This document shows, in pieces, positions 15,839 through 50,224 of a DNA stretch of 64,000 bases. The notes under the pieces were generated by a model. It made no database searches and was not told the origin of the DNA. It saw nothing but the letters and a program-made list of their open reading frames with translations. The stretch is from Acidimicrobiales bacterium (lineage in GTDB: Bacteria; Actinomycetota; Acidimicrobiia; Acidimicrobiales; SHLQ01). The DNA is taken from assembly GCA_020629635.1 (NCBI GenBank), contig JAHDCX010000016.1, positions 34,154 to 98,153 on the forward strand, in the 5' to 3' direction. Each line of letters opens with the position of its first letter. Positions within the stretch are counted from its first letter, which is position 1. A program made the translations under genes and the position numbers.

Positions 15839-15971
15839 GTCCGAGTTTCTCCTTGCTGTGGTGATCGGAATCGGCAAGGGCGATGCCGATTCCGTTTTTG
15901 GGGTATCCACGGACCGACGGCTGTGGCGGCCACGACGGACGCTGGCGACCGTAGCTGCGGGTGCCGGACGC

Positions 15972-16005
15972 GCGTGAACCCACACTGTTAACGCCGCGTG
16001 AACCC
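15972..16005. promoter_or_regulatory. candidate GlnR-box region: 11-bp direct repeat CGCGTGAACCC x2 (24-bp period) flanking GTTAAC
   Basis: The region sits in the divergent glnII/glnA intergenic space. It contains three xxAAC half-sites (TGAAC 15975-79, TTAAC 15988-92, TGAAC 15999-16003). The latter two have 11-nt C-to-C spacing, as in the actinobacterial GlnR a-site-n6-b-site arrangement. The function is inferred. Confidence 0.35.
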
Positions 16006-16049
16006 GATCGACCGTCAAATGGCCGCCTCGACGTACGGCTGCCACGCTT

Positions 16050-17384
16050 GTGTCGATGGAACCCCAGGAGAACTACGTGCTGCGCACCGTCGAGGAGCGC
16101 GGCGTACGCCTCATTCGGCTCTGGTTCACCGACGTTCTCGGCCAGCACAAGTCGGTCGCGATCTCGCCAGCCGAGTTGGAGAAGGTGTTCGAGGAGGGAC
16201 TCCAATTCGACGGGTCCTCGATCGACGGCTTCAGCCGGGTCCAGGAGTCGGACGTGTTGGCCAAACCCGACGCCCGGACCTTCGAGCTGCTTCCGTGGGC
16301 GCGGTCGCACGAGCCGTCAGGACTCATGTTCTGCGACATCGAACGACTCGACGGTTCGCCCTTCGACGGGGATCCACGGCAGGTGCTGCGACGCAACCTC
16401 AAACGGGCGCACGACGCCGGGTTCACGTTCTTCGTCGCTCCCGAGATCGAGTTCTTCTACTTCGGTTCTGACGATCCCACGACGCCGCCTCAGCCCATCG
16501 ATCAGGCGAGCTACTTCGATCTGACCACCGCCGACGTCGCCTCGGATCTCCGCAAGACGACGCTTCACATGCTCGAAGCGCTGTCGATCCCCATCGAATA
16601 CAGCTTTCACGAGGACAGCCCCAGCCAGCACGAGATCGACCTGCAGTACACCGAGGCGCTCGCGATGGCCGACTCGATCATGACGTTCCGGCTCGTCGTC
16701 AAGAAGGTCGCCCAGGAGCGCGGCATCCACGCCACCTTCATGCCCAAGCCCCTCGACGGCGTCCAGGGGTCGGGCATGCACACGCACATGTCGCTGTGGA
16801 AGGACGGCGAAAACGCGTTCTTCTCGGCCGATCACGAGTACGGCCTCTCGGACACGGCGCAGGCGTTCATCGCCGGCACGCTCCGCCACGCCCGCGAGAT
16901 CACGGCCGTCACCAATCAGTTGATCAACTCCTACAAGCGCCTCAACGACGGGCTCGAAGCCCCTCGGTACGTCTCGTGGGCCCGCAACAACCAGTCGACC
17001 CTCGTGCGGGTCCCAGTGACCAAGCCGAACAAACCGCGAGCGACGAGGATCGAATACCGGGCCGCTGACCCCGCGTGCAATCCGTACCTCTTCTTCTCCG
17101 TGGTGTTGGCTGCAGGCATGAAGGGCATCAAAGAGGGCTACGAGCTCCAGCCAGAAACGACGGTGAACCTCTTCGACCGCAAGAGCGCTGCCACCGCTGG
17201 CGTCGAAACGCTCCCCCGTTCGCTCGACGAAGCACTTGCCGAGATGGAGAAGAGCGAACTGGTCCGAGATGCGCTCGGCGATCACATCTTCGAGTGGTTC
17301 CTCCGAAACCGCCAGGCCGAGTGGGACGAGCATTCTCGCCAGGTGACCCCGTTCGAGCTCCAGCGCTACTTCACTCGTTGGTGA
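16050..17384 (+). CDS. glnA: glutamine synthetase type I, GlnA2-like
   Basis: The N-terminus EPQENYVLRTVEERGVRLIRLWFTDVLGQHKSVAISPAELE closely resembles mycobacterial GlnA2. The length is 444 aa. The start is GTG 16050 or ATG 16056. Confidence 0.9.
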   Translation: MSMEPQENYVLRTVEERGVRLIRLWFTDVLGQHKSVAISPAELEKVFEEGLQFDGSSIDGFSRVQESDVLAKPDARTFELLPWARSHEPSGLMFCDIERLDGSPFDGDPRQVLRRNLKRAHDAGFTFFVAPEIEFFYFGSDDPTTPPQPIDQASYFDLTTADVASDLRKTTLHMLEALSIPIEYSFHEDSPSQHEIDLQYTEALAMADSIMTFRLVVKKVAQERGIHATFMPKPLDGVQGSGMHTHMSLWKDGENAFFSADHEYGLSDTAQAFIAGTLRHAREITAVTNQLINSYKRLNDGLEAPRYVSWARNNQSTLVRVPVTKPNKPRATRIEYRAADPACNPYLFFSVVLAAGMKGIKEGYELQPETTVNLFDRKSAATAGVETLPRSLDEALAEMEKSELVRDALGDHIFEWFLRNRQAEWDEHSRQVTPFELQRYFTRW

Positions 17385-17388
17385 TCTG

Positions 17389-18066
17389 ATGGCATCGGTA
17401 CTGATTCACCCCGAACCCATCGGCAACGGCCTGACCCGTGTGCTCGACATGTTGGGCCTCGCCTGGAAGGCGATCCCCAACGCCCAGGGCGCGCTCGACG
17501 CTGCTCCCACCGGTGGCTGGAACGGCGCGGTCGTCACCGTCGACGGCGACCCCCAGGTTGCGTTCGACCTGGCTCGGTCTCTCCGTGCCGTGGACGAAGC
17601 CGACACCCGTATCCTCTTTCTTGTGGGCGCTGATCTGCTCCCGGAGCTCGCCGACAACACCGACTTGTTCGACGACTTCTGCCTGACGCCGTTTCATCCC
17701 GCCGAGCTCGAGGCACGACTCGAGCACCTTCTGCGGCGTTCGGATCCTGGCGGCGAGTCGGCCGTCATCTCGTACGGCCCCCTGCGGCTGAATGTCGAGA
17801 CGTACCAGGCGATGGTCGACGGACGGGCGCTCGACCTGACGTACATGGAGTACGAGCTGCTCCGCTATCTGGCCGCCCAACCGGGCAAGGTCTTCAGTCG
17901 AGAGATCCTGCTGTCCGAGGTGTGGGGCTACGACTATTACGGCGGCGCCCGGACGGTCGACGTGCACATCCGTCGCCTCCGCTCGAAGCTGGGCGAGGAG
18001 CACGCCAGCCTGATCTCGACGGTCCGCTCGGTCGGCTACCGCCTCGGCACAGCCCGTTGGGGCTGA
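17389..18066 (+). CDS. glnR: GlnR-type orphan OmpR-family nitrogen response regulator
   Basis: The C-terminal wHTH reads LDLTYMEYELLRYLAAQPGKVFSREILLSEVWGYDYYGGARTVDVHIRRLRSKLGEEHASLISTVRSVGYRL, which is near-identical in pattern to Streptomyces GlnR. The receiver is atypical and lacks the N-terminal acidic pair (VLIHPEP). No cognate kinase is adjacent, and the gene sits beside glnA/glnII. Confidence 0.85.
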   Translation: MASVLIHPEPIGNGLTRVLDMLGLAWKAIPNAQGALDAAPTGGWNGAVVTVDGDPQVAFDLARSLRAVDEADTRILFLVGADLLPELADNTDLFDDFCLTPFHPAELEARLEHLLRRSDPGGESAVISYGPLRLNVETYQAMVDGRALDLTYMEYELLRYLAAQPGKVFSREILLSEVWGYDYYGGARTVDVHIRRLRSKLGEEHASLISTVRSVGYRLGTARWG

Positions 18067-31448: not shown

Positions 31449-32723
31449 GTGACGGAGCGCCCGCCATCGGTCGACGCCCTTGCTCGGTCCCTGGCCGAGT
31501 CAGGACTGCCGCATCCTGTGCTCGTCGACATTGCCCGGGAGGCCATCGCCAGCGGCGATCACACCGTCGCCTCCGACCTCGTCGAGACGTTCCGACGGAC
31601 GACGCTCCAGCGGGTGGTGAACGGCACCGGGACCCTTCTCCACACAAACCTCGGGAGAGCGCCACACGGCGTGCACCAGGAACCAGGGTTCCGAAACCTC
31701 GAGCTCGACCTCGAGACTGGCGAACGCGGCTCGAGGCAATCCCATGCGCCCCGGCTGCTCGCGAAGCTCTGCGGGGCCGAGGCGGCGATCGTCGTCAACA
31801 ACTGCGCGTCGGCCGTGATGTTGATCCTCGCCGCGCTCGCCCGTGATCGTGGCGTGGTCGTCTCCCGAGGCGAACTCGTCGAGATCGGCGGCGGATTCCG
31901 GGTGCCCGAGGTGATGGAACAATCCGGCGCACGACTCGTCGAGGTCGGCACGACCAACCGCACTCGCCGCTCCGACTTCGCTCGGGCGATCGAGAACCCG
32001 GCAAACGACGTCGCGTTGGCGATGCAAATCCATCAGTCGAACTATCGGATCACGGGATTCACCGAGATGCCGTCGACCGCGGCGCTCGCCGACCTTGGCG
32101 TGCCGCTCGTTTCTGACATCGGATCGGGACTGCTCGACGCTGCATGCCCATGGCTCGACGGTGGGCCTCCGTCGTGGCTGGCCGACGAACCGGCCGCCCG
32201 ACAGACCCTGGCGGCCGGCGCTCAGCTGGTGGCATTCTCCGGAGACAAGCTTCTGGGCGGACCGCAGGCGGGCATCATCGCCGGCGATGCCGAACTCGTT
32301 TCTGCGTGCGCTCGCCATCCACTGGCTCGGGCACTTCGTCCAGGCGGGTTGGTGCTCGGCGCCCTTCAGGATCTCGCCATGACCTATCTGCATCGCGACG
32401 GCCAGGCGATTCCGTTCTGGCGGATGGCGACGGTCTCGGTCGATGAGCTCCGTCGCCGAGCCGATGCGGTGGTCGCCGCGTGCCCGAACGTCGATCTGGC
32501 CGTCGTGGAGACGATGGCGGTCCCGGGCGGAGGCACGCTCCCCACCGTCGAGATCCCGTCGATCGGCCTCTCGCTCCACGGCGACCGGCGTGCCGAGCTT
32601 CGAGCCGCGGCGACTCCCGTCATGGCGCGGATCGCGGAAGACACGACCGTCTGCGACCTGCGCACGATCGACCCCTCTGATGATGGGTTGATCGCCGACG
32701 CGATGGGCACGCTCGCCTCGTGA
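31449..32723 (+). CDS. selA: L-seryl-tRNA(Sec) selenium transferase
   Basis: Motifs seen are VVNGTGTLLHTNLGRA, NNCASAVMLIL and FSGDKLLGGPQAGII (PLP lysine). The GTG start is at 31449, and the stop overlaps the selB start (GTGA). Confidence 0.9.
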   Translation: MTERPPSVDALARSLAESGLPHPVLVDIAREAIASGDHTVASDLVETFRRTTLQRVVNGTGTLLHTNLGRAPHGVHQEPGFRNLELDLETGERGSRQSHAPRLLAKLCGAEAAIVVNNCASAVMLILAALARDRGVVVSRGELVEIGGGFRVPEVMEQSGARLVEVGTTNRTRRSDFARAIENPANDVALAMQIHQSNYRITGFTEMPSTAALADLGVPLVSDIGSGLLDAACPWLDGGPPSWLADEPAARQTLAAGAQLVAFSGDKLLGGPQAGIIAGDAELVSACARHPLARALRPGGLVLGALQDLAMTYLHRDGQAIPFWRMATVSVDELRRRADAVVAACPNVDLAVVETMAVPGGGTLPTVEIPSIGLSLHGDRRAELRAAATPVMARIAEDTTVCDLRTIDPSDDGLIADAMGTLAS

Positions 32724-34444
32724 GTCACGTCGTCTCCACGGCCGGCCACGTCGATCATGGCAAGTCGACCCTCGTCCGGGCGCTCACGGGTACCGACCCG
32801 GACCGTTTCGCTGAGGAGAAGGCCCGGGGCCTCACGATCGATCTGGGCTTCGCATCGGCCAAGCTTCCCTCTGGCCGCGTCCTGTCGCTCGTCGATGTGC
32901 CGGGACACATCCGGTTTTTGAAGAACATGCTCGCCGGCGTCGGTGCAGTCGACGCGTGCCTGTTCGTCGTCGACGCGAACGAGGGCTGGAAGCCGCAAAC
33001 CGAGGAGCACCTCCGGATCCTGCAGCTCCTCGGTGTCCGTCATGGCGTCGTCGCCCTCACCAAGATCGGACTCGCCGACGCAGATCTGCTCGAACTCGCC
33101 CGCCTCGACATCGCCGAAAGAACCGAGGGCACCTTCCTCGAGGATGCGCCGGTGATCGGTGTCGATTCGATCGACGGAACCGGTCTCGACGAACTCCGAA
33201 CCGAACTCGACGGCCTGCTCGATCGAACCCCCGATGCCGCCGATCGCGGGACCCCGCGACTGTGGATCGACCGGGCGTTCTCGGCAAAGGGATCCGGCAC
33301 GGTGGTGACCGGCACCCTCACCGGTGGGCGGGTGCGAGTCGACGATGAGCTCGTGTTGTTGCCCCAGCGGCGAAGCGTTCGTGTCCGCGCCCTGCAGAGC
33401 CTGCACGCCGAACGCACGAAGGTCGGGCCCGGCAACCGGACCGCCATCAACCTCGCCGGGGTCTCCCACGACGAGCTCGCTCGCGGCGATGTGCTCGTCC
33501 GCTCGGGGGAGTGGTTCGAGACAGCCACATTCGACGGCTCGCTGACCGTTCTCGATTCGCTGGATCACGAGGTCTCTCGGCGTGGAGCACACCTGCTCTA
33601 TCTCGGCGCCGGCGAACACGCCGTCCGCGTCCGGATTCTCGGCCCGTCGACCATCGCTCCTGGCACCACCGGAAACATCCGAGTCCATCTCCCGCACGCG
33701 CTGCCGCTCCTTCCGGGCGATCGCTTCATCCTGCGTGAGGCAGGACGAGCCGAGACGATCGGCGGCGGTGAGGTGCTCGATGTCGATCCGCAGGTCCGAG
33801 CAAGCGAGGCGACGCCGGATCGCTCGGTCGACCGCGTGATCTCCGAACGGGGCTGGGTGGACGTCGACGAGCTCGCATTGCTGACCGGTGAGCAGCGCGA
33901 ACCTGATGTCGGTCGGTGGGCTGTCGATCCTGGTGTCCTCACCCAGGCCGTGACCGACCTCCGAGCGAGAATCGACGAGGCCGGCCCCCTCGGTCTGGAT
34001 CTGGCCGTTCTGGACGAACAGGAACGAGCCACCATCGAGCTGCTCGGCGACGTCACGACCGACGCCGGACGGATCAAGACGGCCGACGCGTCCGACGTGC
34101 TCGCGGACCACCCCTGGGTCGACGCCCTCCGTCGCGGCGGCTTCGTGCCGCCAGACCCCGAGGGCGTCGACGCCGGCGAAGTGCGAGAGCTTGTCCGGCG
34201 AGGGAGTGTCGTCGCCATCGATGGCGTGCACTACGCACCCGAGACGATCGACGCCGCAGCTCGGCTACTGGCGCAGATGCTCGCCGATGCCCCCGATGGA
34301 GTGACGGTCTCGGAGGTGCGTCAGGCAATGGGCAACACGCGCAAGCACGCGATGCCGTTGCTCGCCCGCCTCGACGAGACCGGAATGACTCGACGGCGCG
34401 GCGATGTTCGAATCGCCGGGCCGCGGCTTCCGGAGCCGAGCTGA
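32720..34444 (+). CDS. selB: selenocysteine-specific translation elongation factor
   Basis: The G-domain reads VVSTAGHVDHGKSTLVRALTG...DVPGH...TKIGL. The long C-terminal extension ends with a winged-helix-like SECIS-binding region (RKHAMPLLARLDETGMTRR). Confidence 0.9.
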   Translation: MSHVVSTAGHVDHGKSTLVRALTGTDPDRFAEEKARGLTIDLGFASAKLPSGRVLSLVDVPGHIRFLKNMLAGVGAVDACLFVVDANEGWKPQTEEHLRILQLLGVRHGVVALTKIGLADADLLELARLDIAERTEGTFLEDAPVIGVDSIDGTGLDELRTELDGLLDRTPDAADRGTPRLWIDRAFSAKGSGTVVTGTLTGGRVRVDDELVLLPQRRSVRVRALQSLHAERTKVGPGNRTAINLAGVSHDELARGDVLVRSGEWFETATFDGSLTVLDSLDHEVSRRGAHLLYLGAGEHAVRVRILGPSTIAPGTTGNIRVHLPHALPLLPGDRFILREAGRAETIGGGEVLDVDPQVRASEATPDRSVDRVISERGWVDVDELALLTGEQREPDVGRWAVDPGVLTQAVTDLRARIDEAGPLGLDLAVLDEQERATIELLGDVTTDAGRIKTADASDVLADHPWVDALRRGGFVPPDPEGVDAGEVRELVRRGSVVAIDGVHYAPETIDAAARLLAQMLADAPDGVTVSEVRQAMGNTRKHAMPLLARLDETGMTRRRGDVRIAGPRLPEPS

Positions 34445-39061: not shown

Positions 39062-39135
39062 CGGGCAGTGGCGCAGGTTGGTAGCGCGCCTCGTTCGGGA
39101 CGAGGAGGTCGTGGGTTCAAATCCCGCCTGCCCGA
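39062..39135 (+). tRNA. tRNA-Pro (anticodon CGG)
   Basis: The cloverleaf is: acceptor CGGGCAG/CTGCCCG; D arm GCGC-AGGTTGGTA-GCGC; anticodon arm CCTCG-TTCGGGA-CGAGG; T arm GTGGG-TTCAAAT-CCCGC; discriminator A. CCA is not encoded. Confidence 0.9.
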
Positions 39136-39156
39136 CTCCTGACCCCGAGCGCGCCG

Positions 39157-40149
39157 TCAGCCGCCGTAGTGGTCGATCGAGTCCTTCCCGGTTCGCATCT
39201 GATCGATGGCGTTCTGCGCGTCGGCGATCGCATGCTCGAGGCGCTCGATCACGAGCGCTCGGTCGGCAAACGGCAACGTCTCGACCAGATCGTTCAAACG
39301 ACCGGCGCTTCGCCACGCCGCCATCTTCGCCCACTCGGTGAACAACACGTCGTGGTCGTCGATGGCCATCAGGTCGACGGAACGGCTTTGTTCGTCCCGA
39401 CTCGTGTCGAGCGCAACGTAACCGTTGACCATCGAGATCCGCTCGCACAACTCGTCGAGCGGACCAGCTCGGTGCACGACCATGTCGCCGTGCAGCGCAA
39501 TCGCCCAACCCGGTCCACCGAAATCGGGCGCCACCGTCCGCTCCGGAGGTGGCGTGAGACCTGCGGCCGCGAGCTCGGCGGCCTCATGCTTGGTCCCGAC
39601 GAAGTACTCGAACCGTCCGCCCGCAACGGTGGCCGGATCGGTCACGGACATCACGAAATCGAGCGGCAACGTGTCGTGATGCCATTTGTCGATCCCGACC
39701 TCGATCCTCGACGGCGAATAGTTGAGATGCCCGAGGTGCAGGGGCATCGGATGGGACGCCACCGGGATCCCGTAGATCGCCGAAAGGTGTTCGGTGACGT
39801 GCGAACTGGTGCAGAGGTCCCGGAGCCAGCGGCTTCGATAGCAGCCTCCTCTCACCATGTTCTCGATGCGGTCGCCAGCCGGCTTGACGAACGCCTGCAA
39901 CCGCCGAGCGGTTTCCAACATGATCGCGGCGCCCTCGTCGCTCAGGACCCGAAACGGCGACGACGCGGCCACCGGTGTCGCTTTCGATGCGATCTCTTCG
40001 GCCGAGTAGCCGAGATCCGCGAGCTGGACGATCGTGGACGGCGCCTCCAGTTGAAGGTGGAGGTCCGGCGAGAACTCGGGCTCGCCATCGAGCCACGCAT
40101 AACCCGCAGGTTGGCTGGTGGGGAACGGAACGGCGACGCTCATCGCCAT
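39157..40149 (-). CDS. hypothetical protein, possible Fe(II)/2-oxoglutarate oxygenase (TauD/TfdA-like facial triad candidates)
   Basis: The ORF is 330 aa with good GC3. KWHHDTLPLDFV (H-x-D) and the distal ALHGDMVVHRAG motif suggest a cupin/2OG fold. The family is not securely recognised. Confidence 0.4.
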   Translation of the reverse strand: MAMSVAVPFPTSQPAGYAWLDGEPEFSPDLHLQLEAPSTIVQLADLGYSAEEIASKATPVAASSPFRVLSDEGAAIMLETARRLQAFVKPAGDRIENMVRGGCYRSRWLRDLCTSSHVTEHLSAIYGIPVASHPMPLHLGHLNYSPSRIEVGIDKWHHDTLPLDFVMSVTDPATVAGGRFEYFVGTKHEAAELAAAGLTPPPERTVAPDFGGPGWAIALHGDMVVHRAGPLDELCERISMVNGYVALDTSRDEQSRSVDLMAIDDHDVLFTEWAKMAAWRSAGRLNDLVETLPFADRALVIERLEHAIADAQNAIDQMRTGKDSIDHYGG

Positions 40150-40161
40150 ACGATCTCATCG

Positions 40162-40548
40162 ATGGAGCACGAACCCAAAGCATGCGGCTCCTGCGGCCGC
40201 CGCATCGAGTGGCGTGCCAAGTGGGCCTCGAACTGGGACGACGTCCGCTGGTGCAGCGAGGCGTGTCGTCGTCGGAAGGTCACCCGTGTCGACGACGCCC
40301 TGGAAGCGGCGATTCTCGAACTGCTGAGTCGCCGCGCCCGCGATGCCACGATCTGCCCGTCCGAAGCTGCTCGGATCGTGTCGGACGATGCGCTCGTCGA
40401 AGACTGGCGCGAGCTGATGGAGCCGGCACGTCGAGCGGCTCGACGGTTGGTGGCACGGGACCTCGTGGTCATCACCCAGAAGGGCCGGGTCGTGGATCCG
40501 TCGACCGCCAAGGGACCCATTCGGATTCGGGCACAGTCGACGCCATGA
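40162..40548 (+). CDS. DUF2256 zinc-ribbon + DUF3253 fusion protein
   Basis: The DUF2256 part reads CGSCGRRIEWRAKWASNWDDVRWCSEACRRRK. The DUF3253 part reads ICPSEAARIV...ITQKGRVVDPSTAKGPIRIR. Confidence 0.7.
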   Translation: MEHEPKACGSCGRRIEWRAKWASNWDDVRWCSEACRRRKVTRVDDALEAAILELLSRRARDATICPSEAARIVSDDALVEDWRELMEPARRAARRLVARDLVVITQKGRVVDPSTAKGPIRIRAQSTP

Positions 40549-41531
40549 GCATCGACGGACTTCTTGCGTCGATCTCGGCCGCCGCAGGATCGCCCCTCGC
40601 GTGGGCTCGTCCGCCTCAACCGCTGACCGGCGGATTCTGGGCGGAGATGTGGAAGGTCCGTCTCGAAGGTTCGGCTGATCTGGCCGACCGAGACCTCGTC
40701 GCCCGCGTGATGCCCGATCCCGAGGTCGCCATCCGAGAGATCATCGTGCAGCAGGCTGCGGCCGACGCGGGCGTCGCCACGCCCGCCGTTCGACTGAGCG
40801 GGGGCGAGGATCGCTGGATCGCGCAACGCTGGATGCTGATGGACTTCGTCGACGGATCGCCACTCGTCGGCGATCTCGATCCGCGTCGCCTCGCCGGCAC
40901 ACTGCCCGCCCTCATCCGCGACCTCCCGACTCGGCTCGCCGAGACCACCGCTCAGCTCCATGATGTCGACACGACAGGCGTCTCGGCCAGACTCCAGGTC
41001 GTCGACGACATCGATGAGCTCATGTTTCGGATCCGTGCCCGCGCCGAAGCCGTCGGGGCCAGTCAACTCGTCGAGCGGGGTCGCACCCTTCGGGCCGCCC
41101 GGCCCCCGACAGAACGTGCCGCGCTGTGCCACGGGGACATCCATCCGCTCAACGTCTTGATCGACGGGGCCGACACGACGCTGCTCGACTGGTCGACTGG
41201 TCGTCTCGCCCACCCGGCGTATGACCTTGCGTACACGTCGATGTTGGTGGCGAATCCGCCGCTCGATGCCCCCGGGCCGTTGCAGTGGTTGCTCACTGGC
41301 GCCGGCCGTCGAGTCGCTCAGCGGTTCATGAACGAATACGAGTCCCGTTGCGGTCGGATCGACCCGGAACAGATGGCGTGGTTCGGCGATCTTCACGCAT
41401 GGAGAATGCTCGGTGAGATCGCCACCTGGCGGGCAACCGGCTCCCTGGAAGACCATCGCGGACACCCGTTCTTGCAGATGGAGCACCGGCTCACGACGAG
41501 GCTCTTCGGATCCGCAGGTCGTCGACGCTGA
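40545..41531 (+). CDS. aminoglycoside/choline-kinase-type phosphotransferase family protein
   Basis: The Brenner motif LCHGDIHPLNVLID and DWS are present. The start overlaps the upstream stop (ATGA). Confidence 0.8.
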   Translation: MSIDGLLASISAAAGSPLAWARPPQPLTGGFWAEMWKVRLEGSADLADRDLVARVMPDPEVAIREIIVQQAAADAGVATPAVRLSGGEDRWIAQRWMLMDFVDGSPLVGDLDPRRLAGTLPALIRDLPTRLAETTAQLHDVDTTGVSARLQVVDDIDELMFRIRARAEAVGASQLVERGRTLRAARPPTERAALCHGDIHPLNVLIDGADTTLLDWSTGRLAHPAYDLAYTSMLVANPPLDAPGPLQWLLTGAGRRVAQRFMNEYESRCGRIDPEQMAWFGDLHAWRMLGEIATWRATGSLEDHRGHPFLQMEHRLTTRLFGSAGRRR

Positions 41532-42642
41532 CGATCTCTTCGCGATACGGGATCCGAAGCCACCCGAGGAACCGCAGGGCACCCGAAAGCACGCCGGCGC
41601 CGACCACCGCCACGGCGATGACGATGAGCAGGCCGGCCAGCTGCGCGAAGAGCTGGTCGATGCCTGCACCGTCGACCAGGCCAACGTCAGGAGCAAGTGC
41701 GCCGGGAGCCAGCAACCCGATCGCTCCTGCGACTCCGAACGAGCCTGCGACCCCGACCGGATCGTCGATTCGAATACGGCCCAGCACCCAGAACCCGACA
41801 AGCGCTCCGGCGCCGCCCGCCACGCCCACGGCGAAGGGCGTCCACCAGACTCCGTCGAGTCCCGCCATTGGCACAGAGGCAACGACCCCACCCAGGAGCC
41901 CCCGTACCGCTGAGGTCGACCCGACTCGCCCTGATCCCAGGGCACCGACCAGCGCGCCGGTCACGGCTCCGGCAGCACCGGCGACCAGGCCAGCCTCGAC
42001 CACACCCACGAGCGACTCGGCGTCAGGCGGTATCGAGGCGACCAGCAACCCTCCCGACGCCGCAACGGCGATTGCCGGCCCGACAAGTCCTGCAGCCGCA
42101 ACGGCGAGCGGGACAGACGACCCCGGGACGACTCGGGCCTGTCCACGGCCGCCGAAGCGACCCAGTCGCGGTCCGGTCATCGCCGAGACCACCAGGGCTC
42201 CCCATCCCGAAGCCGTCAAGAGCGCGCCCGTTCCCCCGGGGTCGACAAAGCCGCGGCCCGCGGCATCGATCGAGGCGAGGACGCCGCGTTCGAGCGCGTG
42301 AAGCAGCCCGGGTATCAACAACGCTCCGCAGGAGGCACCGATCGCCAGATGTGCGGTCGTTCGGAGTCGTTCGGCGGCTCCCGCCGAAACCACGGTCGCG
42401 GCGAGGGCCGCCATCGCCGCCGACTGCAGAACGACGTCATCGTCGACGCCCCGAATGAGTCGCTCAACCAGAACCGCCCCAAGCACGCCAGCGGCAGCAC
42501 CTACGAGATGACCGCCGGTGCCCGACATCACGGAACGCCGGCGACACAGCCCGACGATGATGACGAGAAGACCGGCGAAAGCGACGACATGGGAGATCGC
42601 GACGACGGCACGCCAGAGAGTCTCGGCGTCGCGGCTCACCAC
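41491..42642 (-). CDS. divergent ammonium-transporter (Amt)-like membrane protein lacking the twin-His pore residues
   Basis: The protein is polytopic. FVDPGGTGALLTASGWGALVVSAMTGPRLGRF aligns with AmtB LDFAGGTVVHINAAIAGLVGAYLIGKRVGF. IDDPVGVAGSFGVAGAIGLLAPG aligns with VDDPCDVFGVHGVCGIVGCIMTG. Both pore His positions and the GWFGFNAGS motif are replaced. Confidence 0.6.
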   Translation of the reverse strand: MVSRDAETLWRAVVAISHVVAFAGLLVIIVGLCRRRSVMSGTGGHLVGAAAGVLGAVLVERLIRGVDDDVVLQSAAMAALAATVVSAGAAERLRTTAHLAIGASCGALLIPGLLHALERGVLASIDAAGRGFVDPGGTGALLTASGWGALVVSAMTGPRLGRFGGRGQARVVPGSSVPLAVAAAGLVGPAIAVAASGGLLVASIPPDAESLVGVVEAGLVAGAAGAVTGALVGALGSGRVGSTSAVRGLLGGVVASVPMAGLDGVWWTPFAVGVAGGAGALVGFWVLGRIRIDDPVGVAGSFGVAGAIGLLAPGALAPDVGLVDGAGIDQLFAQLAGLLIVIAVAVVGAGVLSGALRFLGWLRIPYREEIVSVDDLRIRRASS

Positions 42643-42742
42643 TCCAGTTCACCGCAATCCCGACACGAATGCCCTGCCCGGCGACGCAGGATTTGGGGAA
42701 CGTAGGGCATCAACGCCCCGCGCTCGATGCCGATGGGAACCG

Positions 42743-45643
42743 GTGAATTCACCGGCTCGGCCGCGCCTCGGTCTGCTTCGACGTATCGGCATCGGGACGC
42801 GCCTCGTCGCGCTCGTGCTACTCCCGGTCGTCGCGCTGGCCGTCGTGGCCACCCTGCTCGCCGCCAGAGACGTCTCTTCGATCGAGGAACTCCGGGAGTT
42901 CCGCCGCGCGGCCGACACCGCAACCCGGACGATTCAGGGAATCGACGCGATTCAGCACGAACGCCACGAACTCGTCGACGGGATCGAGCTGACCCGGTCC
43001 CCCGAGGTGGCGCTCGACATCCACCCCGATCCCGACCGCCGATCCGACCAGGAGCGTCGTCTCGTCGAACGGCTCGACACCGCTCGTGGGCACGCCGCCA
43101 ACGGCTCGGTTCAGAACGCCATCGCGGCCTACTCGACCGTCGTCGATCTCCTCCACGCCGACGCTCGGCGCACGCTCGCCAACGCCCCGGACACCGCCAC
43201 CCGACAATGGTCCGAGTCCATGTTGTCGATCAGCACCGCGCTCGAGGGACAGCTGCTCGAAGACCTCGCGATTCGGACGGGTGCCAGTTCGACCGAGACC
43301 GTTCGGCATCACACGACCTCCGCCGATGCGCTCGACCGTTTCACCGACGTCGCGAGCCGGACGGTGATCGATCGCCTGGAGGCCCTGACGTTGTCGGACT
43401 CGTGGCGGCGCTTGTCGGCCGCCCGACAAGGTTCCGTCACCCGTGGGACGACGATCGACGGGTCCGTGTGGGCTCTCGATGCCCGACATGCATCGGCGAC
43501 GCTTCGCACCATCCGGTTCGAGGTTGCGGTCGACGGGCTGACCCAACTGACGGACTCGATCGCAGACCGCCAGACTCGGCTACTCGGCCTGGCTGCGGTC
43601 GCTGCGGTCTTCGCTGCTGTCCTGCTCGCCTCGCTCGTTCTGCTTCGCCGATCGATCGTGCGGCCGCTGCAGACCCTCACCGTCGCGGCGACGAGACTTT
43701 CGAGAGGAGAGGCCACCGAGATCGACGATCGGGGTCGCGACGAGATCGGCGCCGTCGGCCGTGCCCTGGCCGAGCTCTCCGAGACGATGCATCGTCTCTG
43801 GGCCGACGTCGACGAGATCCAGCGATCGCTCGAACACGGCCAGTTCGACGAGCGCATCGAGACCATCGACCTCGAAGGCGACTGGCTCCGGCTGGCCGAC
43901 ACCATGAACGCAACGCTCGACACCGGCGAGCAGCACACCAGCTCGGTCCAGGCCGAGCTCCGTCGCCGGACCATTCTCGGCGAACTCAGCGAGGCGGCGA
44001 TCCGTGGGGAGACAAGCCAGACGATCACCTCGGTCCTGCTGAGGACATTGCCCCGTGCCGTGCGCGGCTCACACGTGCACCTCCACGCGCATCCAAGCGG
44101 TCCGCCGCGTTTCGATCTGGGCGTCCCCCTCGAACCGAGCATCTCTGCGCTCGACCTTCCGACCCGGGCGCAGGCGCTCGCGGTCGACCTCGGGACGACC
44201 ACCGGAATCGCCGGCCTCGTCGACTTCGGTGATGGTCCGCCAGCGGTCCTCGTGCTCGCCTTTGGCGACGAACACCCGCAGCAGACCGAACCGTTGCTCG
44301 GTCTGGTCGAAACGGCCTGCCGGCTGCTCGCTCAGGCGCATCGGCGACAGGCTGCGGAGTTCTCGGCCAGCTACAACCTCGAACACGACCCGCTGACCGG
44401 GCTGCGCAATGTGACCGGTCTTCGCAGCTGGTTCTCGGAGCACGGCAACGTCGGCAACTGGTCGTTGGTCGGGGTGCATCCGCTCCGCCTCGACGACCTC
44501 GACAGTTCATTCGGTCGACGCAGCCGCGACATCGTCCTGTCGATCATCGCCGGCCGTCTGCGAGGCATCGACCACGCCGAGCTGGTCGTTCGCACCGACG
44601 ACCCCGAGTTCGTGTTGGTCGTTCCTGTCGAGCGGGCAGAAGACGCCGCCCATGACGTCCTCGAACTTCTTGCTCGCCCGATCGCGCTCGAAGCCGGACA
44701 GATGCACGTCGACGTGACCGTCGGAGTCGCTCGGGTCGAGAAGAACGTGACCGACGCGCTCACCGACGTTTCGGCGGCGGCACGCTTTTCTCACGGTCGG
44801 AGCAGCGAGATCGTCACCTTCGACGAATCGCATCGCTCCGAAGTGCGTCGGCGCACCGAGATCGCCCAGTGGCTTGAGGCCGCAATCACCAACGGTGACC
44901 TTCGAGTCGAGTTCCAACCGGTCGTCAACGCCCGAACCCGTCGGACCGAGGGCTACGAGTGTCTCGTTCGGGGAGACCGAGACGGCGTTGCGGTGTCTCC
45001 GGGAGAGTTCATTCCCATCGCCGAAGAGACCGACCTCATTCTCGCCATCGGCGAGTTCACCCTCGGAGAGGCCTGCCAGGCGCTGCCCTTCCTGCCGGGC
45101 GACGACCCCTACGTGGCCATCAACCTCTCACCGGTCGAGTTGAGCTCACCAGGCCTGGTCGAACGGATCGACCAGGTGTTGGCGACTTCTGCCGTCGACC
45201 GGCGTCGCATCGTGTTCGAAGTCACCGAAGGTGCCGCCACCAGCGCCGACGACATCGCCCTTCTCGAACGCATCGCCGAACTCGGGGTCCGTATCGCCAT
45301 CGACGACTTCGGAACCGGACACTCGAATCTCGCTCAGCTCAATGCGCTGCCCGCATCGATCCTCAAGCTGGACCGAAGCCTTGTCACCCCGATCGTCGAC
45401 GATCCGGGAGCGTCGGCCATCGTCGAGAAGACCATCGAGATGGCCCACAAGCTCGGGATGAGCGTGATCGGCGAGGGCGTCGAGACCGAAGCCGAACTGC
45501 GCCGACTCGTGCGTCTCCGGTGCGACCGCATCCAGGGCTGGCTGACCGGCCGGCCCGCGCCGCTCGCCGATCTCGTCGAGGTGCGGATCGATCGCCCGCC
45601 GACGGCGATCCGGCTGGCGCCCGCCGTCGAGGCCGAATCGTGA
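42743..45643 (+). CDS. membrane signalling protein: NIT-like sensor - TM - HAMP - GAF-like - degenerate GGDEF - EAL (c-di-GMP phosphodiesterase)
   Basis: The GTG start at 42743 gives an N-terminal TM (GTRLVALVLLPVVALAVVATLL). A periplasmic helical domain (IDAIQHERHELV) follows, then a second TM and HAMP (IVRPLQTLTVAATRLSRGE...). The GGDEF site reads RTDDPEF. The EAL domain has ECLVR, NLSP, EVTE, DDFGTG, KLDRS, EGVETE and QGW. Confidence 0.8.
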   Translation: MNSPARPRLGLLRRIGIGTRLVALVLLPVVALAVVATLLAARDVSSIEELREFRRAADTATRTIQGIDAIQHERHELVDGIELTRSPEVALDIHPDPDRRSDQERRLVERLDTARGHAANGSVQNAIAAYSTVVDLLHADARRTLANAPDTATRQWSESMLSISTALEGQLLEDLAIRTGASSTETVRHHTTSADALDRFTDVASRTVIDRLEALTLSDSWRRLSAARQGSVTRGTTIDGSVWALDARHASATLRTIRFEVAVDGLTQLTDSIADRQTRLLGLAAVAAVFAAVLLASLVLLRRSIVRPLQTLTVAATRLSRGEATEIDDRGRDEIGAVGRALAELSETMHRLWADVDEIQRSLEHGQFDERIETIDLEGDWLRLADTMNATLDTGEQHTSSVQAELRRRTILGELSEAAIRGETSQTITSVLLRTLPRAVRGSHVHLHAHPSGPPRFDLGVPLEPSISALDLPTRAQALAVDLGTTTGIAGLVDFGDGPPAVLVLAFGDEHPQQTEPLLGLVETACRLLAQAHRRQAAEFSASYNLEHDPLTGLRNVTGLRSWFSEHGNVGNWSLVGVHPLRLDDLDSSFGRRSRDIVLSIIAGRLRGIDHAELVVRTDDPEFVLVVPVERAEDAAHDVLELLARPIALEAGQMHVDVTVGVARVEKNVTDALTDVSAAARFSHGRSSEIVTFDESHRSEVRRRTEIAQWLEAAITNGDLRVEFQPVVNARTRRTEGYECLVRGDRDGVAVSPGEFIPIAEETDLILAIGEFTLGEACQALPFLPGDDPYVAINLSPVELSSPGLVERIDQVLATSAVDRRRIVFEVTEGAATSADDIALLERIAELGVRIAIDDFGTGHSNLAQLNALPASILKLDRSLVTPIVDDPGASAIVEKTIEMAHKLGMSVIGEGVETEAELRRLVRLRCDRIQGWLTGRPAPLADLVEVRIDRPPTAIRLAPAVEAES

Positions 45644-46893
45644 GCCGAACGCGCCGCCTCACGGCAATCGTGGCCGTCGCCGCATCACTGCTCTCTGCCT
45701 GCTCCGTCGACCCACCCGAGAGTCTTGCGGCGGTCGAGACCACGCCGACCGCACGATCGGTCCTGCGGGTCGCCACCTACGACAACGCTCCGCTCGACCA
45801 CGCACTCACCGCGTGGGAGCGAGACCACCCGACCGTTCGCGTGGAAGTCCTCGAGTCCGACATCGCCACCCACCACGCCGCCATCGTCGAGGGCACCCTC
45901 GAGGCCGACCTCGTCGCGATCGATGCGCACTGGCTCGCCGGAATCCGCCAGGATCACGAGCTGTTCGTCGATACGGCCGACTCGCTCGGACCGATCACCC
46001 CCACCGACGCGCCCGACCACATCGCTGCCCAAGTCGTCGTCGACGAGCACGTCTGGGCCCGTCCTGCCTCGGTGGGCGGCCTGGTGTTGGCGACCCGATC
46101 CGATCTCGTTGATGTCGCCGCCTTGGCCGGATCGGACGTGGACACCTGGTGCGACCTCATTCGCACGGGTGACACCTGGGTGTCCGCCAATGAACTCCGC
46201 TTCCTGCCATCGGTCGAGCCGATGTTCCGAGCGGTCATCGACCAGCGACCCGTCGACGCCGACCACGCGCTCACCGGACCCGACGGCAACGCCGCCATTG
46301 TCGACAATCCTGCTGTCGAGCTCGCCTGGGATCTGTCACTCCTCGCCCTCGGGCACCCACCGATGTTCGGTGATCCGTGCGAAGGGTGGGAGGGCGGACG
46401 CATCGCCGGCAATCTCCCCCGCTTCAGCGCACCGTGGACCGAAGCCCTCGCCGAGGGGTCGTTCGCCGCGACGCTCGTGCCTGCGTGGGCACTCGAACGG
46501 CTCGAGACCGGAACCGGATCCACGCAATCGATCTGGACCCACCATCACGTACCCGGGAGTGGAGGCGACCGCGGCGGCACATCGTGGGCGATACCCGCGG
46601 CCGGCAACCGGGCCGACCTGGCCGAGGACCTCCTGAGCTGGCTGACGTCGCCCACCCAGCAAGCGCTCGCCTGGCGCCAAGCCGGCGACCTCCCCGCAGA
46701 AGCAGGCCTTCGTGGCGACGTGGCGGCCGGGCCGCTCGCCGCTTCGGTCGAGTCCGTCCGCGCCATTCCAGGCCCGCACGACCGTGCAATCGTCGAGATT
46801 CTGACAACAGCACTCGAACGGATCGAAGCCGGCAACGCAGAGCCGGCCGATGCGTGGGAAGACGCACTGTTCCGAATCAGGCGACTCGACTGA
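45640..46893 (+). CDS. orphan ABC-type extracellular solute-binding lipoprotein (family 1-like)
   Basis: The GTG start overlaps the EAL gene stop (GTGA). The signal with lipobox reads RRLTAIVAVAASLLSACS. The layout is SBP-like. No permease or ATPase genes are adjacent. Confidence 0.65.
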   Translation: MSRTRRLTAIVAVAASLLSACSVDPPESLAAVETTPTARSVLRVATYDNAPLDHALTAWERDHPTVRVEVLESDIATHHAAIVEGTLEADLVAIDAHWLAGIRQDHELFVDTADSLGPITPTDAPDHIAAQVVVDEHVWARPASVGGLVLATRSDLVDVAALAGSDVDTWCDLIRTGDTWVSANELRFLPSVEPMFRAVIDQRPVDADHALTGPDGNAAIVDNPAVELAWDLSLLALGHPPMFGDPCEGWEGGRIAGNLPRFSAPWTEALAEGSFAATLVPAWALERLETGTGSTQSIWTHHHVPGSGGDRGGTSWAIPAAGNRADLAEDLLSWLTSPTQQALAWRQAGDLPAEAGLRGDVAAGPLAASVESVRAIPGPHDRAIVEILTTALERIEAGNAEPADAWEDALFRIRRLD

Positions 46894-46915
46894 CCGGGCA
46901 CTACCTTGTGAAGTC

Positions 46916-49900
46916 ATGCTCAAGCGTCTGACTCCACAGCAGATCGTCCTCGGTCTGGGCATCGCCATCGCCACGGTCACGGTCCTCTCGGGGATCGCCG
47001 CCGAAGTCTTCGCGTTCAAGAACGACAACGACCAGCACCGGGTGGTGTTCGCGAACATTCCCGACATCTTCCGGCTGATCTTCTACACGGTGCTTCCGGT
47101 CCTGATCGTGTACGGCGCCTGGATGTTCTCGCTCCGCATCAAGAACTGGCGACGTGGTGGCCCAGACAATCGGGCCACGACCTCCAAGAACGCAGGCGAG
47201 CGGCTCAAGGACCTCCGATCAGGCCTGTACATGCAGACCCTGCTGCGCGAGCCGGGCGCCGGCCTCATGCACTCGATGATGTACTTCAGCTTCATCGTGC
47301 TGCTCGGCGTCACCACCACGCTCGAGATCGATCATCAGCTCCCGGAGTCACTCAAATTCCTTCACGGTGGCACCTACAAGGGCTATGCGTTCGTCGGCGA
47401 TCTTGCCGGTCTGATCTTCACGATCTCGATCGTGTGGGCGATCCTGCGCCGCTACGGCCCTCGTGCGATGCGGCCGTACCGCATCCGCATCAAGTCCAAG
47501 CCCGAGCACGCCATGATCCTCGCCACGTTCCTGGCGATCGGCGTGACCGGCTTCGGTGCCGAGATGTTCCGAATCGCTCTCGAGGGCGAGGCGCTCGGCG
47601 AACTCCCCGAGTACGAGCGGTGGAGCTTTGTCGGCTACCCGCTCGCGACCCTCGTCGAAGGCAGCGACAACCTCTCCGGGTGGCACCAGTTCTGGTGGGT
47701 CTTCCACGTTCTGTCGTTCATCGCGTTCTTGATCATGTTGCCGATCACGATGCTTCGCCACATCTTCACCTCGCCGCTCAACATGTACCTCGGGCACAAG
47801 GACCGCCCGAAGGGCGCCATGAAGGCCATGCCCAACCTCATGGAGACCGAGCTCGAGACCTTCGGCGCCTCGACCATCGAAGACTTCACCTGGAAGCAGC
47901 TCCTCGACACCGACTCGTGCACGATGTGCGGCCGCTGCACGAGCGTGTGCCCGGCGCACCACACCGGCAAGCCGCTCGACCCCCGAGAGATCGTGCTCAA
48001 GACCGGCGAGGTCATGGCCCGCACCGGCGACCCCCAGGTGTCGCCTCCGATCGGCGTCGACGGCGAGATCACGGTTCCGGCCAACTGGATGTTCGACCGG
48101 GTCACCTCCGAAGAGCTCTGGGCGTGCACCTCGTGTCGCGCGTGCGATGAGATCTGTCCCGTCAACATCGAGATCCTCGACAAGATCCTCGACATGCGCC
48201 GGTACCTGTCGCTGATGGAGTCGGACTTCCCGACCGAGCTCGGCAACGCCTACCGAGGCATGGAGAACCAGATGAACCCCTGGGCGATGTCCCAGGGCGA
48301 GCGCGCCGACTGGGTCGTCGACGACTCGGTCACGGTGATCGACGGCTCCGACCCGCTCGAAGCCGAGTACCTGTACTGGGTTGGTTGCGCCGGCTCCTTC
48401 GACGACAAGAACAAGAAGGTCAGTCAAGCGCTTGCGACCCTCCTGAATCGCGCCGACGTCAGCTACGCAATCCTCGGTCCCGCAGAGAACTGCACTGGCG
48501 ACTCCGCCCGGCGGACCGGCAACGAATACATCTTCCAGATGCTCGCGATGCAGAACATCGAAGTGCTCAACGGCATGGGCGTGAAGAAGATCATCACCCA
48601 GTGCCCGCACTGCTTCAACACGCTTGCCAACGAGTACCCGCAGCTCGGCGGGCACTACGAGGTCATCCACCACAGTGAGTTCCTCGCCGAACTCGTCGAT
48701 GACGGCCGCCTCGACATGACCAACGCCAACCTCGCGGAGCGGATCGTCTACCACGACGCCTGCTACCTGGGCCGGCACAACGACGTCTACATGGCGCCCC
48801 GCAAGGTCATCGGAGCGCTGGGCGGCGTCCAGGTGCTCGAGGCCGAGCGGAGCGGCAACAAGAGCATGTGTTGTGGTGCCGGCGGCGGTCGCTTCTGGAT
48901 GGAGGAGACGACCGGCAAGGACGTCAACGTCGACCGCTCGCAACAGCTGTTGGCCACCGGTGCGAGCCGGATCGCGACGGCTTGCCCGTTCTGTTACGTG
49001 ATGATCGACGACGGGGTAAAGGGTCAGGGCGTCGACGAGGACGAGGTCCAGGTCGCCGACATCGCGATTCACATGCTCGAAGCGCTCGAACGCGGTGACC
49101 AGCTCGCCACGCAGGATCTGTTGACGCCGACGATCGGCGAGACGATGGTGAGCTTCGGCGAGCGCACGCCGACCGGCCGAAACCACGATGTCGATCGCTC
49201 CGGAGCCGCAGCCACCAGCGCGTCGGCGACCGCAGTACTCGAGCCCACCGACACCGGGACCATCGACACCGAGGCCATCGACACCGACGTCACGAAAGCA
49301 CTCGAAACGACCCCGGAGATCGAGGTCATCGAGGACGATCCGGCGGTGGAGACGGAGATCGAGGATCCGGCGGAGGTCGAGGCCACCACCGACATCGAAC
49401 CCGACGTCGAGGTTGCGCCGACCACCGAGGCCGAGGCGGAGGTCGGACTGACCACCGACGAGCCGGCTCTCGCCGCGGATGAGGCCGCGGTCGAAGAGAC
49501 GGCGAGCCCAGACTCCGCCGAGGCGGAGGCTTCTGCGGACGCGGACAGCGAGACCGCCGTCGCCGCGGATGTTGATGTTGATGCTGATGTTGATGCCGCG
49601 ACCGCGGTCCCGGCGACTCCCGAGCTCGGCACCGATGACCTCACCGAGATCAACGGGATCGGCACGGCGATGGACTCGATGCTGAACGACCTCGGCATCG
49701 TCAACTTCGACCAGGTCGCCGCAATGGACGACGACTACCGGGGTCGCCTCGACGCCTATCTCGATTTCGACGGGCGTATCAGCCGCGATGACTGGTCGGG
49801 CCAGGCCCGAACGCTCGCCACCCAGCGACCAAGCAAGGGCGACGCATTGCCCGACATTCCCGAGCGGGAGATCGTCGAGGTCGACACATCCATCGCGAAC

Positions 49901-50224
49901 GCGTTCGCCGGTACGGGTGCGATCGACACGGGTGACACCGCCGAGTGGCGGACCGTCGAGCCCGACGACCTCAAGGTGATCAAGGGCATCGGGCCAAAGC
50001 TCGAGGCACTACTCCACGAGATCGGCGTTCGAACCTACGAACAGATCGCCGCATTCCCCACGGAGTACATCCTGGGGCTCAACGAGTTCTTGTCGTTCAG
50101 CGGTCGGATCGAACGTGACAACTGGGTGGGACAGGCCGTCGAGCTCGCTCGTACGCGGCCTGCCAAGACGTCGTCGCTCCCGCCGATCCCCGACGAGACC
50201 CCCGACAACGCCACCGCGCAGTAG
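46916..50224 (+). CDS. membrane-anchored HdrD/GlpC-like (Fe-S)-binding reductase with acidic linker and tandem C-terminal HhH-like repeats
   Basis: An N-terminal ~6 TM domain is followed by two ferredoxin motifs (CTMCGRCTSVCP, CTSCRACDEICP) and two CCG-type Cys-rich domains (VGCAGSF..CPHCFNT; HDACYLG..MCCGAGGG..ACPFCY). An Asp/Glu/Thr/Ala-rich region comes next. The C-terminus has two ~62-aa repeats (DDLTEINGIGTAMDSMLNDLGIVNFDQVAAM...GRISRDDWSGQARTLA and DDLKVIKGIGPKLEALLHEIGVRTYEQIAAF...GRIERDNWVGQAVELA). Confidence 0.85.
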   Translation: MLKRLTPQQIVLGLGIAIATVTVLSGIAAEVFAFKNDNDQHRVVFANIPDIFRLIFYTVLPVLIVYGAWMFSLRIKNWRRGGPDNRATTSKNAGERLKDLRSGLYMQTLLREPGAGLMHSMMYFSFIVLLGVTTTLEIDHQLPESLKFLHGGTYKGYAFVGDLAGLIFTISIVWAILRRYGPRAMRPYRIRIKSKPEHAMILATFLAIGVTGFGAEMFRIALEGEALGELPEYERWSFVGYPLATLVEGSDNLSGWHQFWWVFHVLSFIAFLIMLPITMLRHIFTSPLNMYLGHKDRPKGAMKAMPNLMETELETFGASTIEDFTWKQLLDTDSCTMCGRCTSVCPAHHTGKPLDPREIVLKTGEVMARTGDPQVSPPIGVDGEITVPANWMFDRVTSEELWACTSCRACDEICPVNIEILDKILDMRRYLSLMESDFPTELGNAYRGMENQMNPWAMSQGERADWVVDDSVTVIDGSDPLEAEYLYWVGCAGSFDDKNKKVSQALATLLNRADVSYAILGPAENCTGDSARRTGNEYIFQMLAMQNIEVLNGMGVKKIITQCPHCFNTLANEYPQLGGHYEVIHHSEFLAELVDDGRLDMTNANLAERIVYHDACYLGRHNDVYMAPRKVIGALGGVQVLEAERSGNKSMCCGAGGGRFWMEETTGKDVNVDRSQQLLATGASRIATACPFCYVMIDDGVKGQGVDEDEVQVADIAIHMLEALERGDQLATQDLLTPTIGETMVSFGERTPTGRNHDVDRSGAAATSASATAVLEPTDTGTIDTEAIDTDVTKALETTPEIEVIEDDPAVETEIEDPAEVEATTDIEPDVEVAPTTEAEAEVGLTTDEPALAADEAAVEETASPDSAEAEASADADSETAVAADVDVDADVDAATAVPATPELGTDDLTEINGIGTAMDSMLNDLGIVNFDQVAAMDDDYRGRLDAYLDFDGRISRDDWSGQARTLATQRPSKGDALPDIPEREIVEVDTSIANAFAGTGAIDTGDTAEWRTVEPDDLKVIKGIGPKLEALLHEIGVRTYEQIAAFPTEYILGLNEFLSFSGRIERDNWVGQAVELARTRPAKTSSLPPIPDETPDNATAQ

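Follow-up and report, generated by a model that had tools for sequence, protein, structure and literature searches.

What can a cell do with an ammonium transporter homologue that no longer has the residues through which ammonium passes? The question is raised by a gene on the minus strand at 41491..42642 of a 64,000-nucleotide stretch of DNA from an Acidimicrobiales bacterium (GenBank assembly GCA_020629635.1, contig JAHDCX010000016.1, positions 34,154 to 98,153; the whole stretch is called the window below). The gene, here named dAmt for degenerate Amt, has a GTG start and encodes 383 amino acids (aa) with 11 predicted transmembrane (TM) helices. Few features of the Amt/Mep/Rh family are as conserved as the twin histidines of the pore, and the clade to which dAmt belongs can be seen as a natural experiment in the use of an Amt scaffold that appears unable to move or bind ammonium and yet is selected. 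We give about an even chance to the reading developed here, in which dAmt would be a transport-dead membrane scaffold or regulatory subunit acting via its cytoplasmic face.

Fold and pore residues of dAmt

Judged by profile match and modeled structure, dAmt is a true member of the Amt/Mep/Rh superfamily by descent and has the full Amt fold. A first-pass annotation of the window had recognized an Amt-family protein at this position, quoting motifs (GFVDPGGTGALLTASGW, GPRLGRFGG, GPAIAVAASGG and RIDDPVGVAGSFGVAGAIG) that are all found in the translation, and the profile alignment and structural model that it suggested bear the assignment out. The match to PF00909 is significant (E=1.7e-23; 83.5 bits against a gathering score of 23.2; profile positions 87-392). 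An AlphaFold2 (AF2) model of the single chain, built from a 41-sequence alignment, has the 11-helix Amt fold, with eleven long helices, a mean pLDDT of 93.1 and a pTM of 0.92; compared by Foldseek with solved Amts (Af-Amt1, E. coli AmtB, Sd-Amt1 and Ks-Amt5), it reaches TM-scores of 0.78-0.84. The sensor Amts Sd-Amt1 and Ks-Amt5 are the best PDB matches of dAmt in sequence and in fold. Its score against the NCBIfam "amt" model TIGR00836, 87.5 bits, lies below the curated transporter threshold of 343.3. The short length of the protein is due mainly to a lost periplasmic TM2-TM3 loop and a truncated C-terminal tail; all helices are present, and the chain stops 10-15 residues past a conserved E..GLD motif (E..(G/S)(L/V)D across the clade). 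A transducer module fused after TM11 was looked for in the domain scan, which returned no further domain. We would expect dAmt still to fold as an 11-helix subunit, and by analogy with the family a trimer is probable.

Pore residues were placed, in an E. coli AmtB numbering checked against PDB 2ns1, by three alignments: phmmer against 6eu6 and 8qj3, a 17-sequence MAFFT alignment that includes AmtB, and a 77-sequence MAFFT alignment. The first-pass annotation had claimed that both pore histidines are gone, and all three alignments agree: H168 is replaced by L142 (codon at 42217-42219, minus strand) and H318 by F302 (41737-41739), with no histidine recovered on gapping. The loss of the motifs that recruit NH4+, which it had also claimed, is equally plain. 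In the S1 and Phe-gate region, F103, F107 and W148 read Q73, M77 and E118, and the stretch corresponding to W212/F215/S219 (GPAIAVAASGG, around residues 191-200; its register varies by alignment) contains no aromatic residue and no aromatic-plus-Ser arrangement. The structural Asp160 is retained, as D134 (42241-42243) in dAmt and in 24 of the 26 clade members described below.

Amt-like ammonium receptors are defined by the N1/N2 signature QX6EX15NX2D[F/T]X54-60TX2[S/T] (PMC11152129). At these positions dAmt reads F, I, H, G, A, T and S, with the four polar ligands lost; the Q/E/N/D of the signature is absent in 26/26 clade members and present in both canonical Amt paralogues of the same genome, which also carry all pore, gate and S1 residues. 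Chance loss of the pore residues in dAmt is excluded, because the other Amt homologues in the 77-sequence alignment retain the entire residue set in 49 cases out of 51.

Published mutants indicate what such changes would do to function. In AmtB and Mep2, replacing both histidines abolishes transport of ammonia and of methylamine; among the twin-His variants tested earlier, methylamine transport persisted in H168E alone, and Glu at the first His position is the sole common natural twin-His variant named; the H168F and H318F variants of AmtB have an unchanged fold (PMC3647058). The engineered H168F, H318F and H168A/H318A proteins (PDB 2npc-2npk series) are substituted at the same positions as dAmt, and the fold is insensitive to these substitutions (PMC3647058). 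They are, however, laboratory point mutants of an intact transporter, whereas the changes in dAmt are natural, fixed in the clade and accompanied by loss of the recruitment and gating apparatus. From the residues and the mutant data together, we infer that dAmt is unable to conduct ammonium by the known mechanism and does not belong with receptors such as Ks-Amt5 and Sd-Amt1; its pore would be lined and plugged by hydrophobic residues and would neither conduct ammonium nor sense it as those receptors do. The idea, put forward with the first-pass annotation, that dAmt might be a sensor is not supported as far as ammonium is concerned: the S1 and N1/N2 sites (PMC11152129) are absent, and neither is conserved within the clade.

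The dAmt clade and the constraint upon it

Most of the genomes compared here are draft bins. Among 40 related genomes searched, full-length relatives of dAmt (31-44% identity) occur in most species of the same genus, and canonical Amts alone were found in those outside it. A HMMER scan of 1.84 billion representatives brought in about a dozen more members (366-411 aa), below which the scores drop sharply to ordinary or domain-fused Amts; the source names of two metagenomic members indicate Acidimicrobiales metagenome bins. The resulting 26 sequences form one clade in a maximum-likelihood tree (SH-aLRT 99-100), distributed over one Acidimicrobiales genus and metagenomes. Position 318 is Phe in 24 members, Cys in one, Tyr in one and His in none. 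H168 is retained by a single member (P0029), with Phe its commonest substitute (16/26), and W148 by four, three of which are the earliest-branching subclade; W148, S219, F107 and F215 are not conserved across the clade, and several lineages have lost the periplasmic TM2-TM3 loop. Because Phe318 is found clade-wide while H168 and W148 survive in few members, H318F seems to be the founding change, which would have arisen in the ancestor of the genus-level clade and become common to all of it, with loss of H168, of the periplasmic site for NH4+, of the Phe gate and of the N1/N2 pocket coming later.

Selection of Phe at position 318 and its frequency at 168 could also be taken to mean that the substrate has changed, the hydrophobic twin-Phe pore now passing a small neutral molecule, such as a gas, instead of NH4+. 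The twin-Phe state does recur in nature, in a second pair of Amts (P0064 and P0078) that is unrelated to the dAmt clade. We nevertheless hold a change of substrate to be very unlikely: the other pore-lining and vestibule residues vary widely in the clade, the periplasmic side is its least conserved part, two Phe rings are expected to fill the lumen, and the record of the E. coli twin-His variants, in which H168E was the only transporter of methylamine, speaks against it as well.

The second pair deserves a remark of its own. Both proteins combine H168F and H318F with a retained W148, and P0064 also retains F107 and S219 and lies in a P-II-amt operon of a different lineage (metagenomic, L037:4635-6200; P0078 is at L040). 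It follows from the pair that both pore histidines have been lost more than once, and from the operon of P0064 that pore-dead Amts can persist beside PII.

When conservation in the dAmt clade is mapped onto the predicted topology, it is higher in cytoplasmic loops and inner helix thirds (0.638) than in periplasmic loops and outer thirds (0.531; Mann-Whitney p=3e-5), whereas the same contrast in canonical Amts is not significant (p=0.18). Positions that are at least 85% conserved in canonical Amts are kept by the clade in 22/33 cases where they lie on the inner side, in 6/21 where they lie in the middle and in 10/23 where they lie on the outer side. Twenty-one residues are invariant, and Phe at 318 is 92% conserved. 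The invariant clusters are GPRxGxxG in the TM5-6 loop, DDPxG in the TM9-10 loop, AER in TM3-4, an RRRSV variant of the TM1-2 loop, and R..LR....E.VGLD where the C-terminal region begins. Many glycines at packing positions have been kept as well. Within the region that docks PII in proteins of the AmtB type, the E..GLD motif and the loops facing the cytoplasm survive, and the distal HGE.AY part does not. The constraint on the cytoplasmic face points to dAmt being a scaffold or regulatory subunit, and purifying selection mainly on the cytoplasmic loops and the C-terminal stub would be what keeps it in place.

Codon comparisons indicate that dAmt is under real but relaxed purifying selection and is not a dead gene. 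The open reading frames (ORFs) of the 18 full-length orthologues that were read, and the window's own, are all intact, and no indel breaks the frame although the proteins diverge by 56-69%; apparent internal stops in the genome search of the orthologues proved on reading to be terminal stop codons or alignment overrun. Ratios of nonsynonymous to synonymous substitution (dN/dS) were estimated by the Nei-Gojobori method on protein-guided codon alignments. In the four closest species pairs they come to 0.12-0.26 for dAmt and 0.07-0.13 for the divergently transcribed neighbor at 42743..45643 (the EAL gene, described below), values that are rough with dS saturated in every pair.

Several observations weigh against a scaffold or regulatory subunit. 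To begin with, saturation makes the dN/dS of dAmt an imprecise guide, and in the window's own lineage (G000/G003) the ratio is about 0.46, above the other close pairs (0.26 for the EAL gene). Identity to the nearest congener, G003, is 44% for dAmt, 50% for the solute-binding protein (SBP) encoded beyond the EAL gene, 66% for the EAL gene, 79% for a 330-aa neighbor and 87% for a canonical Amt; dAmt is the fastest-evolving of the genes compared, and its own lineage is the fastest. GC content at third codon positions (GC3) is 0.74 in dAmt against 0.86-0.88 in canonical amt genes, and 62% of the residues are Ala, Gly, Val or Leu, a combination that fits weak constraint. At least two losses of dAmt have occurred within the genus. 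Canonical Amts, too, are most conserved in the cytoplasmic loops, which the clade may have kept because the protein has to fold and not because they form a surface for binding. Finally, the genome's single PII gene is unlinked to dAmt, lying on another contig beside a MIP-channel gene.

Much of this would suit a functionless relic, made redundant after two Amts took over uptake and glnK left, whose open frame reflects only slow decay in a GC-rich genome. The high substitution rate, the lowered GC3 with drift to Ala/Gly/Val/Leu, the TM2-TM3 loop deletions, the independent losses and the elevated ratio in the window's lineage all lean that way. A relic is nonetheless rather unlikely in our estimation: every ORF read is intact with its indels in frame at that level of divergence, dN/dS stays low in the four closest pairs, 21 residues and a nearly constant Phe318 are held, the AF2 fold is confidently packed, and an element resembling a ribosome-binding site (RBS) is conserved before the start codon.

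Origin of the locus and its divergent neighbor

The synteny anchor of the locus is a gene for an HdrD-like membrane protein (46850..50224, plus strand; 4Fe-4S and two CCG domains). The 34 genomes checked, from 23 genera of the order, all have its core at 66-95% identity, and its C-terminal extension of about 400 aa is acidic and of low complexity, with helix-hairpin-helix-like repeats. Other families were covered by 25 genomes. In 16 of them the Amt with the best match to the clade profile is no more than 2.2 kb away from the HdrD-like orthologue, and in 15 it is divergent; these syntenic Amts are canonical, and one genome (G037) has glnK 3' of the syntenic amt. Within the genus the gene order is HdrD-like, SBP, EAL gene and then dAmt on the opposite strand. 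Because canonical amt is divergent to the HdrD-like gene across the order and an EAL-SBP operon now stands between the two, dAmt is, to judge from gene order, a degenerate positional descendant of the canonical amt(-glnK) found beside the HdrD-like gene in that order.

The canonical amtB-glnK locus is probably the phylogenetic ancestor of dAmt too. The maximum-likelihood tree was unable to place the long stem of the clade, and in an approximately unbiased (AU) test the union of dAmt with the order's Amt clade was not rejected (delta lnL 5.2, p=0.376), a result that is compatible with such descent and goes no further. Compared with the canonical locus, that of dAmt lacks glnK and its Amt has lost the pore residues; glnK would have gone from the locus, with two canonical Amts elsewhere in the genome covering ammonium uptake. 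An intermediate arrangement is seen in P0036, the most divergent clade member, which lies 171 bp from the HdrD-like gene and has no adjacent EAL gene. The series that results (canonical amt-glnK by the HdrD-like gene, dAmt by the HdrD-like gene, dAmt separated from it by the EAL-SBP operon) is clear enough to make the order of events testable.

Two other origins were considered and rejected. Descent from fused sensor Amts is suggested by database matches, but the clade falls outside the fused-sensor clade in the tree; a recent duplication of the genome's own canonical Amt gave way to positional orthology with the order's syntenic amt. Duplication is seen at the ancestral position in another family, where one genome (L043; G160:C1:1219300-1222038) has the syntenic canonical amt tandemly duplicated beside the HdrD-like gene.

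The first-pass annotation had pointed to a divergent signaling gene about 100 bp from dAmt. That gene is the EAL gene (42743..45643, plus strand), and the intergenic region shared by the two divergent genes (42643..42742) is 100 bp long. The product runs from a TM segment through a periplasmic helical domain of about 250 aa (NIT-like), a further TM segment, HAMP and a linker to GGDEF and EAL. Of the NIT-HAMP-GGDEF-EAL architecture that had been proposed, HAMP, GGDEF (weakly, 27.8 bits) and EAL (strongly, 207.6 bits) are matched, but NIT (PF08376) is matched by Pfam in only 4 of 16 orthologues (best E=8.5e-9) and has no Pfam match in the window's own copy even at E<=1. Foldseek of the AF2-modeled sensor region gave weak matches to NarQ sensor-TM-HAMP fragments only (E of at least 0.055), which we do not count as evidence. 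The GGDEF site is degenerate (DDPEF in the window; GEPEF, GQPDF, GDPEF or TKPDF in relatives) and the EAL catalytic motifs are intact in 10/10 orthologues; the product is predicted to be a phosphodiesterase of cyclic di-GMP (c-di-GMP). Across 150 further genomes of the order, its N-terminal sensor part is without an orthologue.

Directly behind it, with a GTG start that overlaps the TGA stop of the EAL gene (GTGA), comes the gene for the SBP, a solute-binding lipoprotein (45640..46893, plus strand; PF13416, LSAC lipobox). It follows the EAL gene in 18/24 congeners, evolves fast (28-50% identity) and has no ABC transporter genes adjacent to it, which makes it an orphan binding protein. On the other side, the RBS-like element of dAmt, GGTGAA, lies about 7 nt 5' of the GTG and matches a TTCACC block kept in most of 16 species. 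A search around dAmt for a sigma-70-like promoter or a terminator found none, and no GlnR-box-like repeat is recognizable by eye in the aligned dAmt/EAL intergenic regions.

How tightly is dAmt tied to this operon? The EAL gene is present in 25/25 genomes of the genus, and dAmt is adjacent and divergent to it in 17/24 congeners, across a gap of about 60-450 bp; the metagenomic P0029, in which H168 is kept, is likewise paired with an EAL gene. One congener has dAmt 7 kb from the EAL gene, and in another a contig end probably cuts the locus in two. Five of the 24 congeners are without dAmt and keep the EAL gene; in four of these the surroundings are rearranged in a common way, with an aminotransferase gene, and the SBP gene is missing too, and the fifth keeps it. 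Conserved linkage, which the first-pass annotation had put forward as a check, is seen in the 17 congeners and P0029, but it fails in the five and, in the other direction, in P0036. That annotation had named a missing PF00909 match, histidines restored by gapping or a lack of conserved linkage as fatal to its claims; the match, the alignments and the linkage reported here came out otherwise.

The adjacency has been kept often enough to raise the possibility that dAmt is a dedicated co-sensor of the phosphodiesterase, binding ammonium or another ligand and signaling by membrane contacts as a split version of Sd-Amt1. Sensor Amts are, as noted, its best PDB sequence matches, many of the nearest database matches outside the clade are Amts fused to GGDEF-EAL, histidine-kinase or methyl-accepting chemotaxis protein (MCP) modules, and some orthologues of the partner carry a NIT-like domain, a type related to nitrogen. 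We regard a co-sensor as unlikely. S1, the Phe gate, the twin histidines and N1/N2 are lost, these sites vary in the clade and no conserved ligand site is visible; the clade is not nested among the fused sensors; and the phosphodiesterase owns a periplasmic domain and a binding protein. The adjacency itself is accounted for by the EAL-SBP operon lying between the HdrD-like gene and amt, and the linkage is weaker evidence of coupling because it is confined to the genus, explained by inherited synteny and broken in both directions.

If dAmt is instead a scaffold or regulatory subunit, the leading candidates for its clients are the divergent NIT-like-HAMP-EAL phosphodiesterase and the cell's single PII protein. 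A more specific version, in which a dAmt trimer serves as a cytoplasmic docking platform that passes intracellular nitrogen status, for example via PII, to the phosphodiesterase and its SBP, strikes us as decidedly improbable. Were it true, the fused Amt receptors would have in dAmt a counterpart that is split and blind to ligand, and external sensing of a nitrogen oxyanion or other solute and internal nitrogen status would jointly set c-di-GMP. The PII (GlnK/GlnB-type) gene itself lies directly downstream of a same-strand gene of the MIP/aquaporin family (G000 contig C13:153644-154853, outside the window); it adjoins none of the genome's three Amt genes, and the MIP-PII pairing is unusual.

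A different kind of partner would be the two canonical Amts, whose activity dAmt could tune as a non-conducting subunit of heterotrimers. There is precedent in RhD/RhCE with RhAG and in the effect of inactive subunits on plant AMT1 trimers. The Amt fold and many glycine packing positions are kept, two canonical paralogues coexist with dAmt in the genome, and the RhAG-RhCE complex 7uzq is among the Foldseek matches of the model. Against this, dAmt has no linkage to the canonical amt genes and no visible co-regulation with them, and it is very highly diverged from the paralogues (about 30% identity); we see only a slim chance of mixed trimers.

Known systems and other genes in the window

Other membrane proteins offer partial likenesses. 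Human RhD/RhCE have lost pore residues and persist as non-transporting membrane components, much as is proposed for dAmt; they are, however, eukaryotic members of the Rh branch and act in a defined heterotrimer with RhAG. In the "trigger transporters" UhpC/UhpB and LysP/CadC, a transporter homologue is encoded beside a separate membrane signaling protein, as dAmt is. UhpC and LysP keep their substrate sites and their interactions have been shown experimentally; dAmt, in contrast, is without a visible conserved ligand site.

Closest within the family are Sd-Amt1 of Shewanella denitrificans (8qj3/8qj4) and Ks-Amt5 of "Ca. Kuenenia stuttgartiensis" (6eu6), in which, as in dAmt, the Amt fold is reused outside assimilation. 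In Sd-Amt1 the Amt module is tied via HAMP to c-di-GMP metabolism (PMC11152129; PMC5764959 for the receptors). Thus the pairing of an Amt with c-di-GMP signaling, which had been presented as a new wiring, is already known in fused form. The difference lies in the parts: Sd-Amt1 and Ks-Amt5 retain S1, the Phe gate, the twin histidines and the N1/N2 pocket and have a fused transducer, whereas dAmt has lost all of these sites and stands alone, and the EAL phosphodiesterase next to it is a protein apart that brings a sensor domain of its own. Should a partner of dAmt exist, the repertoire of Amt-based signaling would extend beyond ligand-binding receptors; should there be none, the clade would be a record of the slow decay of a redundant membrane protein in a GC-rich genome.

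Genes on the 3' side of dAmt differ in how far they accompany it. The APH-family phosphotransferase gene (40500-41531, plus strand) converges on dAmt, their 3' ends overlapping by 41 bp; it was considered as a linked partner and rejected, as it is not a conserved neighbor. Upstream of it is a gene for a small DUF2256+DUF3253 protein (about 40174-40548). The 330-aa protein gene (39157-40149, minus strand) has no Pfam family and is 62-79% identical within the genus. In about six species it lies directly 3' of dAmt and co-directional with it, with a start/stop overlap in one; in the window the two are parted by two opposite-strand genes. A tRNA-Pro(CGG) gene (39062-39136, plus strand) sits between a response-regulator gene and the 330-aa gene.

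Farther off, the window contains a divergent pair of glutamine synthetase genes (14825-16045 and 16050-17384), of which the minus-strand copy matches the glutamine synthetase domains only partially, and a gene for a GlnR-like OmpR-type regulator (17389-18066) in which no match to a receiver domain is detectable. The first-pass annotation had described the region as rich in nitrogen-control genes. The two synthetases and the GlnR-like regulator are indeed present, but at about 24 kb they say little about dAmt. Also in the window are a gene for a glutamine-dependent NAD synthetase (13001-14692) and one for a SelB-type selenocysteine elongation factor (32720-34444, plus strand), the latter implying selenoprotein synthesis in the organism.

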